A stretch of 64,000 nucleotides of DNA, taken from NCBI GenBank assembly GCA_964548265.1, contig CAZJPR010000003.1:279-64278 (forward strand). Direction: 5' to 3'. Below the pieces are notes generated by a model that searched no databases, had not been told where the DNA came from, and worked only from the letters and a program-made list of their open reading frames with translations. Every line of letters begins with the position of its first letter. Within the stretch, counting starts at the first letter, position 1. A program made the translations under genes and the position numbers. This document shows positions 1,186 through 7,608 of this stretch, in pieces. The DNA is from an uncultured Candidatus Saccharibacteria bacterium (GTDB taxonomy: Bacteria > Patescibacteriota > Minisyncoccia > Phycocordibacterales > Phycocordibacteraceae).

Positions 1186-1256
1186 GCGGCTATCGTTTAG
1201 TGGTAGGACGCGTCCTTGCCAAGGACGAGATGGGAGTTCGATTCTCCCTAGCCGCA
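1186..1256 (+). tRNA. tRNA-Gly (anticodon GCC)
   Basis: Cloverleaf by eye: acceptor GCGGCTA/TAGCCGC, anticodon loop TTGCCAA, T-loop GTTCGATTC, discriminator A. Confidence 0.85.
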
Positions 1257-1265
1257 CCAACATGA

Positions 1266-1294
1266 AGAAAACGGCCCCAAAAGGGCCGTTTTCA
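1266..1294. terminator. Rho-independent terminator hairpin
   Basis: ACGGCCC-caaaa-GGGCCGT followed by TTTTC; A-run upstream, so it could act in both directions. Confidence 0.6.
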
Positions 1295-1465
1295 ATACCT
1301 TGATAAGTCTGTGGATACTGGGGATAAAGGACAAAAAGACAACCTGAAGAAATTATTCTTTTTCTCTTAAATACCCTGTATATCAAGAGTATTTCTTTCG
1401 GTCGTCTTTTATGAAGCGTCCTTCATGTGTATTCAACAAGCGCGTTGTGCTAGGATGCGCGGACC

Positions 1466-1536
1466 GGGCCGTAGTATACCGGTAGTACATCTGCTTTGGG
1501 AGCAGACTGACCGGGTTCGATTCCCGGCGGCCCGAC
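1466..1536 (+). tRNA. tRNA-Pro (anticodon TGG)
   Basis: Acceptor CGGGCCG/CGGCCCG, anticodon stem TCTGC/GCAGA, loop TTTGGGA (G37), T-arm CCGGG-TTCGATT-CCCGG. Confidence 0.8.
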
Positions 1537-1539
1537 TAC

Positions 1540-2742
1540 CTAGTGAATCGCTTCTTTTATCACGTCGAGAAGCTCGGCGGCATCGTCCTCGTATCCTGAC
1601 ACGAGGGCATTCGTATTTCCCGAGAGATAGGTGTCGAGGTCCTTGCCTGTTTCTCGCTTAAACTCGCGGCGTATGTGGTCGATGGTAATTGCTTGAAGAT
1701 CGCGCAATGAAAGATCTGCCTTAACGGTGCGGGTGGTAATGGCCCCTATGAAACGGTCCTTGCTATCCAAGACACCTCCTCCGGAAGAACCTTCCTGAGC
1801 GGCTGCCCCGGCGTTAACAGAAAAGATATCAGGATTGCCTGTTACCTTCGAGAAGGTATACGCCTCCTTAACAGAGCCGAAGGCTATGGTGGGGTAGAGG
1901 GAAGAACGTATCTCAGAGCTTGTGAGAAACTCCGCACCATAGGAGCCACTCGATACCTTGTCTCCCGCAGCTATCCTCGCCCCCGTGGGAGCCAGTTTCA
2001 CCGCAGGGAAGGAAGAGGGCATGGAACCCGTGAGGCTTCGCGTGATCGCTAGGAAGGCGAAATCGTCCTTACCCGTGCCCTTTGGGCGACTGGTTACAAT
2101 GGTTTCAGGATTCTCCTCAATCCATGTGGAGGACAAATAGATGAGCTCGGCATCATAGGCGTTTTTGGCTGGGCTTCCGGTTCGGATCACACAGTTCCCC
2201 GCGTCCTTGGTAGGGAAGTCCTCAAGGAGGAAATTCTGTGCGACGTGTGCAACAGTAATGATGATGCCGCGAGGGTCGATAACCACGCCAGTGCCTGACA
2301 TGCCCTGAACGTTATAGCCTTTTGCTGGAAGACAGATGATGTTAACCAGGGCACCCTTGAGAAGTGCAGTGGTCGATGTGTGCGGTTGAGGATCTTCCGT
2401 TGTTGGGAGTGGAGTGGTGGTCTCCGTTGGCGGAATAACGACCGGAGGGGCGACAATCACCGGCGGGCGGACAGGCGAAGGCGCAGGAAACGTAAGCGTC
2501 GGGGTCGAGGGGGAAGAATCGGTTGCAATGGTGTCTTCAGCGCCCTGGAGTAGGTCGTAGATAACTTCCTCAAGCGTTGGTGGGTGCACGCCAGGGTTCC
2601 AGTTCTCAAGAGCTGGCATTGGTGGGGGAGCGACCGCCACCTTCTCCTCAAGGACATCCGAGCTTCCAACGCCGAGCACGGCGGACACGAGCCCTAGGAT
2701 AAGGGCGGCGCCATTGACGAGGAGTTCCTGAATGGCTGACAT
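1540..2742 (-). CDS. Membrane-anchored trypsin-like (S1) serine protease with proline-rich linker
   Basis: N-terminal TM helix, PT-rich spacer, His motif TVAHV, Ser motif GSSGGGV (GDSGG-like). Confidence 0.7.
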   Translation of the reverse strand: MSAIQELLVNGAALILGLVSAVLGVGSSDVLEEKVAVAPPPMPALENWNPGVHPPTLEEVIYDLLQGAEDTIATDSSPSTPTLTFPAPSPVRPPVIVAPPVVIPPTETTTPLPTTEDPQPHTSTTALLKGALVNIICLPAKGYNVQGMSGTGVVIDPRGIIITVAHVAQNFLLEDFPTKDAGNCVIRTGSPAKNAYDAELIYLSSTWIEENPETIVTSRPKGTGKDDFAFLAITRSLTGSMPSSFPAVKLAPTGARIAAGDKVSSGSYGAEFLTSSEIRSSLYPTIAFGSVKEAYTFSKVTGNPDIFSVNAGAAAQEGSSGGGVLDSKDRFIGAITTRTVKADLSLRDLQAITIDHIRREFKRETGKDLDTYLSGNTNALVSGYEDDAAELLDVIKEAIH

Positions 2743-2820
2743 TATGCGTACGCTACACCATTCATACGAAAAGGGAACGGGTGGGCGAATACATGTCCTT
2801 TATGGTATCCTCGCCCAGAA

Positions 2821-2891
2821 GCGGGATTAGTTTAATGGTAGAACATCAGTTTTCCAAACTGAGAGCAGGAGTTCGATTCTCCTATCCCGCA
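2821..2891 (+). tRNA. tRNA-Gly (anticodon TCC)
   Basis: Acceptor GCGGGAT/ATCCCGC, anticodon stem TCAGT/ACTGA, loop TTTCCAA, T-arm AGGAG-TTCGATT-CTCCT. Confidence 0.8.
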
Positions 2892-2927
2892 CCCTTTAGT
2901 GCTAATCCGAGAGACTGAGGTGCTTAG
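2888..2927 (+). repeat. Left copy of ~38-bp imperfect direct repeat (att-like), starts in the tRNA-Gly 3' end
   Basis: GCACCCtTTAGTGCTAaTcCgAGAGACTGAGgTgCTTAG aligns with 4148-4188 at about 31 of 38 positions. Confidence 0.55.
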
Positions 2928-2972
2928 TTGGTAAGTTTCTAATCCCCAAAGAATCAAGTTAAAGTCTCTGTA

Positions 2973-3530
2973 ATGGTCAAAATACCCAAAGTAACCAGAG
3001 GGAAGCTACTTAAGGCTCTGAGGTCTTTTGAACAGCGACGAGAAAGGTTCCCCAATATAATTCTTCTACAGGAAGCATCTACTTTTGAGATTGACGACCC
3101 ATCTCATCCAGACTCTGACGTAAGCGAGGTAAAAGTGACGGTGAGGATAGAGTATCCAAACTACCAGTACTTGGTAGGAGAAATTTACGGAAGTTCAGAG
3201 CTGCGCGATGGCCCTTTTGGATTCAAGGCACCTGTTGGAATTATTCGTGATGAAGTTCTGCGGATGGCCAACGATGGTTTGGTAACGTTAGAGATGCAAA
3301 GTCCGATTTTTACAAGAATAGATAAAAGGAATGGCGAAGAAGTTCGCTACGACCCGGGCAAATTTTTTAGCAGGGAAGAAATCAAAGACTACAAAACAAA
3401 AATAGTGCTTACTACAAAAGGAAGGAGTGTGCTCGAATACTGGAAGTCTAGCTTCCCAGAAAATGCTGTTGCGTGGCTCTCGCTCTTCGTTTCTCTCCTA
3501 GCATTACTTACCTCGATTTTTATTAAGTAG
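2973..3530 (+). CDS. Hypothetical tail-anchored membrane protein (soluble N-domain, single C-terminal TM helix)
   Basis: 185-aa ORF, AT-rich codon usage, C-terminal hydrophobic segment AVAWLSLFVSLLALLTSIFI; no recognisable family. Confidence 0.5.
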   Translation: MVKIPKVTRGKLLKALRSFEQRRERFPNIILLQEASTFEIDDPSHPDSDVSEVKVTVRIEYPNYQYLVGEIYGSSELRDGPFGFKAPVGIIRDEVLRMANDGLVTLEMQSPIFTRIDKRNGEEVRYDPGKFFSREEIKDYKTKIVLTTKGRSVLEYWKSSFPENAVAWLSLFVSLLALLTSIFIK

Positions 3531-3600
3531 CCCAAATCGAGATGCCTCATTAAGAGGCTTTAACCCTCGCGCCTAGTGCAAATAAACTTATAATAAAAGT

Positions 3601-4062
3601 ATGTCGTCTGCGGTTAATCGAGCAAAAAGGCGTTTAGTAGACAGCATCATTGCTGGGCGACGTAATGCAGAAAACGCAAAATACGGAGCATTCATTGTTC
3701 AGACAAATGAAGTTCAACTCAAACTCGCTTTGGCTGTTTTGCAGCGATCGGGCTTGCCTGATAAGGACTATGTAGAGAAATTGGAGAGATCAGAACTTGG
3801 CCCACTCCTGAATCTATATAAGGCCTGCGTAAAGAGAGTATCGCCAGCAGCCGTAACGCTAGTTCGAGATCTTGGAACATATAAGGGCTACAGGAATCGT
3901 CTTGCACACAAAATGTTCGGAGGAAAAAAGCTGACTCCTGTCGAGTGCGAAGAAGCGATAAAACTGGGAGAGTCTATATTACGGCGTCTGAATCAGTTAG
4001 TGGGTATATATAAAAATGCGAAGCCGAGAGTGCAAACCGAGTGGGAAAAGGTAAAGACCTAG
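3601..4062 (+). CDS. HEPN-like protein (Rx4H motif), candidate RNase/toxin component
   Basis: 153-aa helical ORF with YRNRLAHKMF (R-x4-H HEPN signature, as in DUF4145/HepT/Abi-type HEPN domains). Confidence 0.45.
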   Translation: MSSAVNRAKRRLVDSIIAGRRNAENAKYGAFIVQTNEVQLKLALAVLQRSGLPDKDYVEKLERSELGPLLNLYKACVKRVSPAAVTLVRDLGTYKGYRNRLAHKMFGGKKLTPVECEEAIKLGESILRRLNQLVGIYKNAKPRVQTEWEKVKT

Positions 4063-4147
4063 ACCGAGATGCCTCGACTTCAATCCTAAAACCCCGCCAA
4101 AGAACCCTTGAAGTGCCCCACTCTACCTAGTTCGAGACCGAGGTGGG

Positions 4148-4188
4148 GCACCCACTAGTGCTAGTTCAAGAGACTGAGATACCTTAAG
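4148..4188 (+). repeat. Right copy of att-like direct repeat
   Basis: GCACCCacTAGTGCTAgTtCaAGAGACTGAGaTaCCTTAAG; preceded by 9-bp stem hairpin GTGCCCCAC...GTGGGGCAC enclosing a T-loop-like TTCGAGA. Confidence 0.5.
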
Positions 4189-4222
4189 CATTTTATGCTG
4201 CCCCTTCGGGTATACTCAATAC

Positions 4223-4639
4223 ATGTTAAGCACGCTGCAGTACGGTTTACTATATCTTGTTTCAGTTCCGGTGTTCTTTATCATTGACCTGTTTTGGTTA
4301 GGGATAGTTGCTCCTGGTTTTTATAAATCGCAGATAGGGCACCTACTCAGCCCAACGGTTAACTGGCCAGTAGCAATCGTGTTTTACCTCCTATTTTTAG
4401 TTGGACTTATTATTTTTGCCGTTGCGCCGGCAATCGAGGCTCGTGCGTGGACGCACGCACTATTGTATGGAGCACTGTTTGGTTTTTTTACGTACCTTAC
4501 CTATGACCTAACCAACTGGGCAACAATGAAGGAGTGGCCCGCATTAGTATCAATCGTCGACATTGTGTGGGGGACGGTGCTTTCTGGAGCAGTAGCAACC
4601 ATAACGTACTTACTCGCTACTACCTTTATCATTAAATAG
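4223..4639 (+). CDS. Small integral membrane protein (DUF2177-like, 4 TM)
   Basis: 138 aa, four hydrophobic helices; 4-bp gap to next gene. Confidence 0.55.
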   Translation: MLSTLQYGLLYLVSVPVFFIIDLFWLGIVAPGFYKSQIGHLLSPTVNWPVAIVFYLLFLVGLIIFAVAPAIEARAWTHALLYGALFGFFTYLTYDLTNWATMKEWPALVSIVDIVWGTVLSGAVATITYLLATTFIIK

Positions 4640-4641
4640 TC

Positions 4642-5424
4642 ATGACACCATTGGCTCTTTCATTGGTAGCGCTTCTTGCCTACATGAGTGCGTTATTTGT
4701 CATTAGTCTTATCGTCAAAAACAATGGCGTTGCAGACATCGGGTACGGAATTGCATTTATGATTGTCATTGCGGCAACCTTCGCCCAGACAACAATCACC
4801 GAGCCATTCATTGTGGTCTTAGCGCTCTTACCATTTATATGGGGTGCTCGACTCGCAACTCGAATCTATCGTAAGAACAAAGGTAAGCCAGAAGATTTCC
4901 GGTACAAAGCCTGGCGTGACGCGTGGGGAAAGAGTTTCATCGTACGGAGTTTCTTTCAGGTGTATATGCTACAAGGTCTGGTTGTCTTCATTGTGTGTCT
5001 CCCCGTGACGCTTGCGCTCCTCTACCCATCCGTGCAACCGAACTATCCTCTTGCGTACCTTGGTCTTGCTGTGTGGGTGGTAGGGTTCTTCTTCGAAGTG
5101 GTTGCAGACCATCAGTTAGATCAGTTTATTAACGACCCACAAAACAAAGGATCCATACTGATGCGCGGGTTATGGAAGTACTCACGACACCCTAACTATT
5201 TCGGAGAAAGCACAATGTGGGTAGGTATTGCACTTATCTCCTTGGCGCTTTCCTCGGTACCGCTTGTCGCTCTCGTAAGTCCGCTACTAATTACCTTCCT
5301 TCTTTTGAAAGTGTCAGGGGTACCGCTGCTTGAGAAAAAGTGGGAAGGAAATCTTGCGTGGGAGGTATACAAAAAAAGAACATCGGTGTTTTTCCCACTC
5401 CCACCACGGCTCCCTCATGAATAA
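4642..5424 (+). CDS. DUF1295 / steroid-5-alpha-reductase-like membrane protein
   Basis: Multi-TM ORF with C-terminal RHPNYFGE motif typical of the DUF1295/ICMT/5-alpha-reductase superfamily. Confidence 0.65.
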   Translation: MTPLALSLVALLAYMSALFVISLIVKNNGVADIGYGIAFMIVIAATFAQTTITEPFIVVLALLPFIWGARLATRIYRKNKGKPEDFRYKAWRDAWGKSFIVRSFFQVYMLQGLVVFIVCLPVTLALLYPSVQPNYPLAYLGLAVWVVGFFFEVVADHQLDQFINDPQNKGSILMRGLWKYSRHPNYFGESTMWVGIALISLALSSVPLVALVSPLLITFLLLKVSGVPLLEKKWEGNLAWEVYKKRTSVFFPLPPRLPHE

Positions 5425-6046
5425 ATACATGTATACACTCCTAGCCATTGGAGCCTTACTCATTGCCTGGACGGCAATAAGTTACCTTGTTGAACATTCA
5501 GTTAAGACACCGGCTTATTCGGTTATTGAAAAACGGCACGGATACGAAGTGCGTGTATACCAACCATATATAACTGCTCAGGTGAAGGTCGGCGGGACCT
5601 ATGACGAGGCCTTGAATGAAGGTTTCAGGATTCTGGCTGATTACATTTTTGGAAACAACACAAAACAGACAAGCATCGCAATGACCGCTCCGGTTATCGA
5701 GGGCGAATCTGAGAAGATGGCAATGACTGCTCCAGTGATTGAAAGCTCAAAAGAAGGGAGCCGTACCGTCTCTTTCGTGATGCCGTTTGAATACACGCTT
5801 GAGACACTACCGCAGCCCAACAATCCTAGGATAGAGATTGTCCCGCAAGAAGCACGAAAAGTTGCCGTGCTGAGATTTTCTTGGTTCAGGGACAGTGAGC
5901 GGGTTGCTACGAAAAAGCAGGAGCTCCTCTCGCTGCTTGAGAAAGACTCAGTAGTGAGTAAGGGGGAGCCAGAATATGCGGGGTACAACGCGCCCTTCAC
6001 TGCACCGTGGCTTAACCGGAACGAGATATTGGTTGAAATTAACTAA
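5417..6046 (+). CDS. SOUL heme-binding-protein family protein (secreted/anchored)
   Basis: ATG at 5417 overlaps upstream stop (ATGAATAA); N-terminal hydrophobic signal; similarity by eye to SOUL/HBP fold proteins. Confidence 0.55.
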   Translation: MNKYMYTLLAIGALLIAWTAISYLVEHSVKTPAYSVIEKRHGYEVRVYQPYITAQVKVGGTYDEALNEGFRILADYIFGNNTKQTSIAMTAPVIEGESEKMAMTAPVIESSKEGSRTVSFVMPFEYTLETLPQPNNPRIEIVPQEARKVAVLRFSWFRDSERVATKKQELLSLLEKDSVVSKGEPEYAGYNAPFTAPWLNRNEILVEIN

Positions 6047-6156: not shown

Positions 6157-7608
6157 GTGTTCACAGGGCGTGCTTTATCCGAACCGATTAATACGATTAT
6201 CGATATGCAAAGTAATGTAATGAGAAAGATAGGCGCGGTACTTACCGCCGTCGCGCTCGCGATTTCCGCGTACGCAGCGCTCGGACCGGCCTATACGGCG
6301 CACGCCGCTACGTGTACCTTCAGCCGCGACCTGTACGTCGGGACGACTGGTGAGGACGTGCGCTGCCTCCAGCAATATCTGAATGGTAGTGGCTACAAGA
6401 TTGCCTCCACTGGCCCTGGCGCCCCAGGCGCTGAGACCACTATCTACGGCTCCCTGACGGGAGTTGCCGTTGCTAAGTGGCAGGCTGCAAACGGCGTTAC
6501 CTCAAACGGAAACTTCGGCCCAATGTCCCGCGCCAAGTTCAGCGCGCTCATGGGTGGAGGCAGTACAACCATCCCTCCAATAACTGGCAGCGACCAGCTT
6601 CGTGCAAAGGTTGCCATTCTTGAGGCTGTTGCAGCCTACCAGGATGCCGTTGATGAGGACGGGGACGACGGCCCTCTTGAGGATGCCGCTCAGGACCTTC
6701 TCAATGCGTTTACTCAGTACCTCAACGGAAGTTACGTTCAGGCAATCGCTAGCGCGAACGCTTCAACGGACAGCTCCGATGAGGCAATGGGGAACAGTGA
6801 CGACGACAGCGACAGCAATGACGCTGACGAGAACGACGCAGAAGATGCGATTGCTGACGCAGAGGAAGCTATCGATGACGCTAATGACGCCATTGATGAT
6901 TCCGACGCCTCAGGTAGCGACATCGACGACGCAGAGGGACTCGTAGCTGACGCCGAGGACTTCCTCGACGACGCGAACGCAGCTCTTGATGACGAGGACT
7001 TCGATGAGGCAGTTGATGCTGCAAACGACGCGATTGACGCTGCCAACGAGGCAGAAGACATCGCTAACGGCGACAGCAGCAGCAATGACGGTGACGAAAG
7101 CGATGCTGAGGATGCAATTGCTGATGCGGAAAACGCTATCGATGACGCACAGACAGCTATTGATGATTCCGACGCTTCAGGTAGCGACATCAATGACGCC
7201 GAAGACCTCCTTGCTGATGCTGAGGACTTCCTCGATGAGGCAAATGATGCCTTTGACGATGAAGACTGGGATGCAGCGATGGATTCGGCAGATGACGCGA
7301 TTGACGCTGCTGACGAGGCTCGCGAAATCGCACTTGGAACCAGCGACAGCAATGACGCTGACGAGAACGATGCGGAGGATGCACTCGATGAGGCAGACGA
7401 TGCCATCAGCGAAGCACGCGAGGATCTTGCCGATTCTGACATCTCGTCATCTGACTACAGTGACGCAGATGAACTACTTGATGACGCGGATGACCTTCTC
7501 GAGGAGGCAGAAGACGCCTTCGATGACAATGACTGGGATGAAGTGATTGATCTCACCGACGAAATCATGGATCTCGTTGATGAGGCTCAGGACATCATTG
7601 ACGGATAG
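6157..7608 (+). CDS. Secreted peptidoglycan-binding-domain protein with long poly-acidic (Asp/Glu/Ala) tandem-repeat tail
   Basis: Probable true start ATG 6220 (MRKIGAVLTAVALA signal peptide); PG_binding_1-like segment (TGEDVRCLQQYLNGSGY); then three ~90-aa acidic repeats. Confidence 0.7.
   Translation: MFTGRALSEPINTIIDMQSNVMRKIGAVLTAVALAISAYAALGPAYTAHAATCTFSRDLYVGTTGEDVRCLQQYLNGSGYKIASTGPGAPGAETTIYGSLTGVAVAKWQAANGVTSNGNFGPMSRAKFSALMGGGSTTIPPITGSDQLRAKVAILEAVAAYQDAVDEDGDDGPLEDAAQDLLNAFTQYLNGSYVQAIASANASTDSSDEAMGNSDDDSDSNDADENDAEDAIADAEEAIDDANDAIDDSDASGSDIDDAEGLVADAEDFLDDANAALDDEDFDEAVDAANDAIDAANEAEDIANGDSSSNDGDESDAEDAIADAENAIDDAQTAIDDSDASGSDINDAEDLLADAEDFLDEANDAFDDEDWDAAMDSADDAIDAADEAREIALGTSDSNDADENDAEDALDEADDAISEAREDLADSDISSSDYSDADELLDDADDLLEEAEDAFDDNDWDEVIDLTDEIMDLVDEAQDIIDG
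6800..7605 (+). repeat. Three tandem ~270-bp coding repeats (about 75-80% identical)
   Basis: Repeating blocks gacagcaatgacgctgacgagaacgac...gattccgacgcctcaggtagcgacatc...gaggacttcctcgatga seen three times in phase. Confidence 0.7.

Follow-up and report, generated by a model that had tools for sequence, protein, structure and literature searches.

Two adjacent genes lie downstream of a tRNA gene in the DNA analyzed here, a stretch of 64,000 nucleotides (nt) from an uncultured Candidatus Saccharibacteria bacterium (contig CAZJPR010000003.1, positions 279 to 64,278), which we refer to as the window. The first open reading frame, ORF1 (2973–3530), encodes a tail-anchored membrane protein of 185 residues, and the second, ORF2 (3601–4062), a 153-residue solo HEPN-like protein that is predicted to be a metal-independent RNase. 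Both follow tRNA-Gly(tcc) (2821–2893), which was called by ARAGORN and matches the Rfam tRNA model with 73.1 bits; the tRNA gene, both ORFs and the segments of the hotspot described below are on the forward strand. ORF calls and Kyte-Doolittle hydropathy confirm the observation of an earlier note on this DNA that ORF2 begins 70 nt downstream of a 185-residue protein with a single C-terminal transmembrane (TM) segment. The note had read the two genes as a candidate minimal toxin/abortive-infection pair, in which the membrane protein partners the HEPN-motif protein. We propose instead, with a probability of roughly 0.6, that they are two independent single-gene cargos stacked at a tRNA hotspot, and that ORF2 is a solo HEPN-type RNase.

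The hotspot comprises the 1.26-kb stretch from tRNA-Gly(tcc), its anchor, to a degenerate tRNA 3'-end copy, and holds two unrelated single-gene cassettes. On the left, an attL-like segment (2868–2919) consists of the T-arm and 3' end of tRNA-Gly and ~25 nt of its trailer; the core, GCACCCTTTAGTGCTAATCCGAGAGACTGAG, is located at 2889–2919, and a manual register carries the match into the T-loop. On the right, an attR-like segment (4128–4178) consists of the degenerate tRNA 3'-end copy, AGTTCGAGACCGAGGTGGGGCACCC, and a copy of the trailer, and marks the right border of the cargo; neither ARAGORN nor Rfam calls a tRNA there. The two sides share an imperfect direct repeat of 31 nt (D1; 84% identity, 2889–2919 versus 4148–4178) that encloses ORF1 and ORF2. 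To the right of the cargo, the window (4128–4178) and L010 (loci used for comparison are given as L with a number) share the attR-like pattern AGTTCGAGAC(C/T)GAGGTGGGGCACC, after which the tRNA-Gly trailer is repeated. Sequence related to the attR-like segment is found 3' of ORF2 in L010 and L008 and directly 3' of the ORF1 stop codon in L002 (alignment A8), where the right border is only loosely similar to that of the window and L010. The trailer of tRNA-Gly is conserved in L002, L009 and L010.

As in a tRNA-integrated islet, copies of the tRNA 3' end surround the insert; the integrase or recombinase of such an islet was not found, ORF1 and ORF2 being the only coding-quality ORFs between the repeats. 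The GC content is 0.42–0.48 over ~2800–6000, against 0.53–0.59 in the flanks, and the low-GC stretch runs ~1.9 kb past the att-like repeat. Of the att-bounded, low-GC islet described previously, the 31-nt repeats that bracket both ORFs stand, and the notion of one element gives way to that of a hotspot with variable cargo.

Independent occurrence of ORF1 and ORF2

We compared the hotspot stretch of the window (2821–4178) with L002:1–720, L008:380–1500, L009:1460–2150 and L010:1–765. As in the window, tRNA-Gly(tcc) precedes ORF2 in L008, L009 and L010. In L009 and L010, ORF2 is present at 89% identity and joined directly to the tRNA gene, and ORF1 is absent; the alignment matches window 2801–2925 and then jumps to 3559, omitting the ORF1 block (2926–3558). 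Contig L002, on the other hand, opens with the 3' end of tRNA-Gly(tcc), followed directly by an ORF1 homolog, and lacks ORF2. Three cargo states exist at tRNA-Gly(tcc): ORF1 only, ORF2 only, and both.

Apart from the window, only L026 and L027 carry both ORF1 and ORF2, and these are two other samples of apparently the same organism; the layout is not the recurring one that had been assumed. None of the 18 other ORF2-family loci contains an ORF1 homolog, relaxed hidden Markov model (HMM) thresholds included, and no ORF2-family neighbor was found beside the ORF1 homologs of L003–L006, L024 and L025. Across all 19 ORF2-family loci, ORF calling, all-against-all BLAST and relaxed HMM searches revealed no conserved neighbor of any kind. 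The co-occurrence and co-evolution that characterize a two-gene module are absent from the 18 other ORF2 loci and from five other ORF1 contexts.

The two genes also have different histories. Between the window and the L009 genome, ORF2 is 89% identical with a synonymous divergence (dS) of ~0.5, whereas the flanking trypsin-like peptidase is 45% identical with a saturated dS of ~2.5. Because the identity of ORF2 exceeds that of the flanking gene, and because its leader and tail are equally conserved, we conclude that the ORF2 module (~0.6 kb) was recently transferred between diverged genomes. For ORF1, dS against L002 is ~1.8, and dS of the flanking MgsA gene is saturated. Judged from these divergences, ORF1 looks to have been inherited vertically together with its flanks, and it would have been resident at tRNA-Gly before the window and L002 lineages split. 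Since each gene occurs alone at the same tRNA, no neighbor is conserved and the divergences are discordant, the pair model is contradicted, and the adjacency of ORF1 and ORF2 is a coincidence of cargo stacking, not a partnership.

The unit that carries ORF2 extends over 3559–4127, and comprises the gene, a conserved leader of ~45 nt and a conserved tail of ~65 nt, which travel as one. From window position 3549 or 3559 to 4071–4180, its DNA is 83–86% identical to L007, L008, L009 and L010, and its non-coding parts, leader and tail, match as closely as the gene does. In L007 the module is found at another chromosomal site, where it adjoins genes for an M50 peptidase and L28 (located near 40 kb in the window), and homology to the window starts only ~45 nt upstream of the ORF2 start codon. 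Together these observations describe ORF2 as the cargo of a ~0.6-kb module of gene, promoter-like leader and tail that has moved between diverged genomes of the Candidate Phyla Radiation (CPR)/Patescibacteria. The ratio of non-synonymous to synonymous divergence (dN/dS) of ORF2 is 0.14–0.25 against four relatives, indicating purifying selection.

A −10-like hexamer, TATAAT (3589–3594), was read from the sequence 6 nt upstream of the ORF2 ATG and is conserved in L007 (within 113–126), L008 (within 918–934), L009 and L010; no Shine-Dalgarno sequence precedes the gene. The hexamer may be ORF2's own promoter, giving a leaderless mRNA. It was not called in a consensus promoter scan, and scanning for promoters and terminators gave no useful result. 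Neither tandem repeats nor a conserved small ORF were found in the module, Rfam finds nothing there besides the tRNA, and neither leader nor tail has significant RNA structure (z about −0.8 to −0.9).

In L008, three tandem copies of the tRNA-Gly 3' end precede the ORF2 module, with spacers of ~160–180 nt that contain no ORF. In L013:5581–6510, two identical 20-nt copies of the tRNA-Pro(tgg) 3' end (5639–5658 and 5829–5848) precede an ORF2-family gene for a protein of 209 residues; the block in which this gene lies, of tRNA-Gly(gcc), tRNA-Pro, a trypsin-like gene and tRNA-Gly(tcc), corresponds to window 1186–2893. Since the L013 member sits at tRNA-Pro(tgg), the ORF2 family entered this tRNA cluster at two different tRNAs. 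Trypsin-like peptidases recur near family genes; their recurrence is explained by synteny of the tRNA-Pro/peptidase/tRNA-Gly block.

An 11-mer, CGAGATGCCTC, identified by pattern search (repeat family D2), is located 3' of the ORF1 stop codon (3538–3548) and again 3' of the ORF2 stop codon (4065–4075). It is also present 3' of the ORF2 stop codon in L009 and L010, and is not found 3' of ORF1 in L002. The copies may be a recombination scar from cassette stacking; their significance is uncertain, a 12-nt identity within 3.6 kb being insignificant alone. A tRNA-like minihelix or small RNA at 4115–4153 was also considered and rejected: its 5' arm has no conserved counterpart in L010, the apparent hairpin is not significant (z = −0.8), and Rfam is empty. 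This region is just the degenerate tRNA 3'-end copy.

Sequence motif and predicted fold of ORF2

ORF2 contains the sequence YRNRLAHKMF reported in the earlier note, and within it the R-x4-H motif, R98-N-R-L-A-H103 (codons at 3892–3909), which forms the predicted catalytic site. The note had taken R-x4-H itself as the HEPN signature. The motif alone is within chance, occurring in 37 of the 151 window ORFs of at least 100 residues and in 9% of ORF2 shuffles, and the assignment draws its support from family conservation, from the position of the motif in the structural model and from weak HEPN-clan matches. H103 is the only histidine of ORF2, and among the same 151 ORFs a fuller signature, R-[ND]-x-[LIVM]-[AVSTC]-H, is found in ORF2 alone. 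In the family, R-x4-H is present in all 64 proteins of alignment A3. Alignment A7 holds 110 sequences and includes the most distant detectable relatives, at 17–30% identity; here every sequence has R98, and H103 is conserved in at least 90%. Because of the sole histidine, the unique fuller signature and this family-wide conservation, we consider R-x4-H in ORF2 meaningful. The residue following the arginine is N or D in most family members, and Q34, N36, Y94 and G123 are each conserved in at least 90% of the 110 sequences, the most distant tail included.

The AlphaFold2 model of ORF2, built from the 64-sequence alignment, is all-helical, with a predicted local distance difference test (pLDDT) score of 87.3 and a predicted template modeling (pTM) score of 0.77. 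Helices are formed by residues 2–48, 55–63, 66–76, 82–103, 113–139 and 142–152, and R98–H103 occupies the last turn of helix 82–103, followed by a loop and the long helix 113–139. In HEPN domains, Rx4-6H is positioned at the end of helix-3 or the start of the loop to helix-4, the arginine is usually followed by N, D or H, and helices 2 and 3 typically have an insert between them (PMC3710099). The helix position of the motif, the N or D after the arginine and the helix 2–3 insert of ORF2 all match this description.

Weak matches to the Pfam model HEPN_RiboL-PSP (PF18735) were obtained for 30 of the 64 members, the best being P0021 (E 4.9e-05, 23.8 bits), and all 30 align collinearly with the C-terminal portion of the profile, where the motif is located; for ORF2 the score is 12.7 bits. 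Distant members weakly match HepT-like, AbiU2, Cthe2314 and pEK499_p136, all of which are HEPN families, and a PF09659 label that had been precomputed for P0017 did not recur at E ≤ 0.05. Because the PF18735 threshold test failed, we do not count ORF2 as a member of that family. Based on these observations, ORF2 very probably belongs to the HEPN superfamily, where it represents a new family nearest the RiboL-PSP/Abi-type branch.

The family is small, lineage-restricted and unannotated. A single-sequence search returned only six relatives of ORF2, and a profile search 63 proteins; an exhaustive HMMER scan of 1.84 billion cluster representatives gave only 82 ORF2-family clusters at E ≤ 0.001. 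The few named sources are metagenome-assembled genomes (MAGs) of Paceibacterota, Nealsonbacteria and Moranbacteria, with every protein labeled 'hypothetical protein', and the 13 loci taken from reference genomes come almost entirely from CPR/Patescibacteria MAGs. A scan of viral contigs found relatives of neither ORF2 nor ORF1. Family proteins are ~130–155 residues long, apart from the 209-residue member in L013, and have a conserved N-terminal block of their own, KYGxFI(I/V)QTNEVQ. No strongly hydrophobic segment is present in ORF2 by Kyte-Doolittle analysis.

ORF1, family context and neighboring genes

The sole hydrophobic segment of ORF1 spans residues 166–184 (nt 3468–3524; Kyte-Doolittle 19-residue mean 2.39). 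A single TM segment at the extreme C-terminus, with no N-terminal signal or TM segment, is the arrangement of a tail-anchored protein, a topology predicted here from hydropathy. Only ~6 homologs are known, four of which keep the C-terminal FPENAxAW-plus-TM block. The dN/dS ratio of 0.07 against L002 indicates purifying selection, and a TAAAGT hexamer 7 nt before the ATG is conserved in L002, where ORF1 is 78% identical and synteny with the window extends through the MgsA gene. No match to ORF1 was found in Pfam, NCBIfam or PADLOC, its profile gave only a chance match in the PDB, and an AlphaFold model from four sequences (pLDDT 46) is unusable. A winged-helix-like look of the ORF1 segment DGLVTL...KIVLTTKG is no more than an impression.

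The ORF1 homologs of L003–L006 come after tRNA-Arg(gcg). That of L003 (60% identity) stands between two identical 18-nt copies of the tRNA-Arg 3' end in direct orientation (L003:3617–3634 and 4314–4331), and is a ~0.7-kb single-gene, att-bounded cassette without an integrase. In L024 the homolog is preceded by an unclassifiable ORF of 161 residues; Pfam and PDB searches did not support a HEPN-like nature of this ORF, and the idea of ORF1 combined with a variable RNase was dropped. In L025:2–1331, an ORF1 homolog (48% identity) is located 17 nt downstream of a DUF4411 gene, whose product we take to be PIN-like. ORF1-family genes are in this way also found beside toxin-antitoxin-like modules of other kinds. 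We regard ORF1 as a separate cargo, unrelated to ORF2, with a putative cytoplasmic N-terminal domain of unknown function.

Around the ORF2 family, the 126 neighbors within 5 kb at 14 long loci include four DNA methyltransferases (MTases), three Type III Res proteins, two DUF4238 proteins, two serine recombinases, two ParB_N proteins, one MmeI-type enzyme and one Mutator transposase. In L011:4340–8714, a family gene for 138 residues is nested between Type III mod (549 residues) and res (763 residues) with gaps of 3 and 15 nt, and in L016 another family member has homologous mod and res genes upstream of it. A ParB-MTase, MmeI, a transposase and a serine recombinase are found near the family gene of L001, and a ParB-MTase in L014; in L023 the family gene lies between DUF4238 and a DUF559/Vsr-like gene. 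This context is suggestive of a role in defense or in selfish elements, and is not statistically established. Small ORFs that abut family genes upstream in L012, L017 and L019 were considered as antitoxins and rejected, being mutually unrelated and devoid of antitoxin-type domains. A homologous three-TM protein of 100–103 residues adjoins ORF2-family genes at L013:6540–6851 (downstream) and L020:3858–4160 (upstream); it has no Pfam match and, besides the restriction-modification and ParB-MTase genes, is the only neighbor common to two non-syntenic loci.

Outside the att-like bracket, a low-GC trio of genes at 4223–6046 encodes a DUF2177 membrane protein, a DUF1295 protein, which is a steroid-reductase/methyltransferase-like membrane protein, and a SOUL haem-binding-like protein. 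The trio is missing from the syntenic locus L002, and we therefore consider it a second variable segment adjoining the hotspot. It is followed at 6157–7608 by a gene for a 483-residue protein with an N-terminal signal or TM segment, a PG_binding_1 domain and three D/E/A-rich repeats of ~100 residues. It has a borderline match (22.6 bits) to PF05168, the Pfam model named 'HEPN'; no stretch passes alone, and the match looks like low-complexity noise and not like a second HEPN.

Proposed function of ORF2 and alternative explanations

By analogy with other HEPN proteins that have an intact R-x4-H, ORF2 would be a metal-independent endoribonuclease. Its predicted active site would comprise R98, H103 and probably N99, and would probably be completed by formation of a homodimer or a higher oligomer. 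ORF2 would act alone, without a dedicated neighboring antitoxin, and would most likely be inactive until phage infection or stress, in the manner of HepS. Alternatively, it could be a selfish toxin that stabilizes its cassette, and would then have an antidote.

Several observations weigh against the proposal of a solo HEPN-type RNase carried as independent cargo. No integrase or other mobilizing gene was found for the ORF2 module, and the cargo would have been moved either by a trans-acting integrase or through homologous recombination at the conserved borders. The solo model also leaves unexplained how a constitutively encoded RNase without an antitoxin is kept harmless, and about two-thirds of the family loci have housekeeping neighbors (DnaK, ClpP, FtsZ). 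As for the HEPN assignment, all matches to curated HEPN models fall short of the gathering score (best 23.8 versus 28.4 bits), profiles from the 64- and 110-sequence alignments find no solved structure in the PDB, and PADLOC, NCBIfam and PHROGs give nothing for ORF2. The only matches of the two ORFs in these databases are a chance match to SctJ (E 0.13) and a PHROG of unknown function (E 0.021), both unusable, and in PADLOC-DB v2 neither ORF matches any defense family, even at E ≤ 10. Foldseek searches of ORF2 against the PDB and BFVD were insignificant and returned only generic helical bundles. The structure search gave no significant HEPN match; the model is confidently helical, and the motif ends helix 82–103.

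The same results favor an alternative in which ORF2 is not a HEPN nuclease, and is either an unrelated helical bundle whose R-x4-H is structural or ligand-binding, or an inactive, HEPN-like binding domain. No match exceeds any curated threshold, the generic four-helix bundles found by Foldseek have E > 0.1, no sequence-profile match exists in the PDB, R-x4-H is common by chance, and some genuine HEPN domains are non-catalytic (PMC3710099). Set beside the conservation and modeled position of the motif, we find this alternative unlikely. Another possibility is that ORF2 is the toxin of an addiction cassette, with an antidote that acts in trans or is an RNA or tiny ORF inside the 0.6-kb module, as in type I or III systems. 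The module does persist at recombination hotspots, its leader and tail are about as conserved as the coding region, and classical HEPN toxins normally need an antitoxin. Its equal coding and non-coding conservation is, however, explained equally well by recent transfer, and the module shows none of the tandem repeats, non-tRNA Rfam matches, structured leader or tail RNA, or conserved small ORFs described above as sought; we consider an addiction cassette quite improbable. The arrangement that had prompted the pair model, a dedicated toxin-antitoxin or abortive-infection module in which the tail-anchored protein would sense or restrain the HEPN RNase, is supported by the adjacency of the two genes on one strand, 70 nt apart in one att-like bracket, and by its recurrence in L026 and L027, two samples of apparently the same organism. 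ORF1 homologs, moreover, are sometimes located beside other nuclease-type toxin genes (DUF4411, L025), and small membrane proteins occur near a few other family loci. Against this, ORF2 has a conserved leader of its own, the DUF4411 gene of L025 overlaps its own upstream partner gene by 4 nt, and the genes are found singly after the same tRNA, apart from each other at all loci outside this organism and with discordant histories. The distribution of the genes largely refutes this module, and we regard it as very improbable.

We compared the proposed solo RNase and its cassette with known systems. RiboL-PSP-HEPN (PF18735) is distantly related to AbiF/AbiD, and an 'operon with ParB' has been noted (Anantharaman et al. 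2013, PMC3710099). ORF2-family members match no other curated model repeatedly (30 of 64 match this one), the two families share an intact R-x4-H with a polar residue after the arginine, and ParB-domain genes are present within a few kb at two of the 19 ORF2-family loci (L001 and L014), where they are non-adjacent. In contrast to RiboL-PSP-HEPN, the ORF2 family is shorter, nearly restricted to CPR, and has no L-PSP endoribonuclease fusion; its matches stay below 28.4 bits and cover only the last 45–95 of 191 profile positions. Neither the threshold score nor the L-PSP fusion or ParB operon of PF18735 members was found.

HepS of the Gifsy-1 prophage is an abortive-infection protein with a single HEPN domain that serves as sensor and effector and cleaves tRNA anticodon loops (PMC13043305). 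Whereas HepS has 218 residues and is prophage-encoded, ORF2 has 153 residues, resides in an integrase-less mini-cassette, shows no detectable sequence similarity to HepS and has no relatives on viral contigs. A further comparison is with HepT/MntA, the HEPN-MNT toxin-antitoxin system of type II/VII (SO_3166/SO_3165, PDB 5yep; 7ae2; 8xdj). Unlike in that system, no MNT nucleotidyltransferase was present among the immediate neighbors scanned or the commonest neighbor families, and the motif of the ORF2 family continues as H-K-M-F/Y, in contrast to the R-x4-H-x-Y signature of HepT; the adjacent nucleotidyltransferase and the R-x4-H-x-Y of HEPN-MNT pairs are both lacking. As to the cassette, integrase-less, att-flanked cargo linked to tRNA genes is represented by the cis-mobilizable elements (CIMEs) of streptococci and by tycheposon-derived arrays at Prochlorococcus tRNA genes. 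These resemble the locus described here in having tRNA 3'-end repeats around short cargo, tandem att copies (as in L008) and cargo that varies between relatives. The cassettes here differ in their size of 0.6–0.7 kb, in having one gene each, in the lack of an identified cognate integrase and in their CPR hosts.

The membrane protein and HEPN 'pair' can be removed as a false lead. That the HEPN superfamily is vast and includes solo defense proteins was known before, and current understanding of it stands; the ORF2 family itself is new and small. CPR/Patescibacteria, a poorly understood group, have tiny genomes and few recognized defense systems, to which a mobile family of solo HEPN proteins contributes a candidate immune or toxin function encoded by one gene. 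As a small-scale example of gene flux driven by hotspots, the tRNA-anchored single-gene cassettes could be surveyed systematically. A more far-reaching reading, plausible though rather unlikely, is that ORF1 and ORF2 exemplify a class of integrase-less one-gene cassettes of ~0.6–0.7 kb, general in CPR genomes, that home to tRNA 3' ends or are exchanged there and stack into arrays, with an antitoxin-free HEPN sensor-effector RNase of 130–155 residues as one recurrent cargo. If this is true, bacteria with reduced genomes would keep a swappable, tRNA-anchored store of one-gene defense modules.

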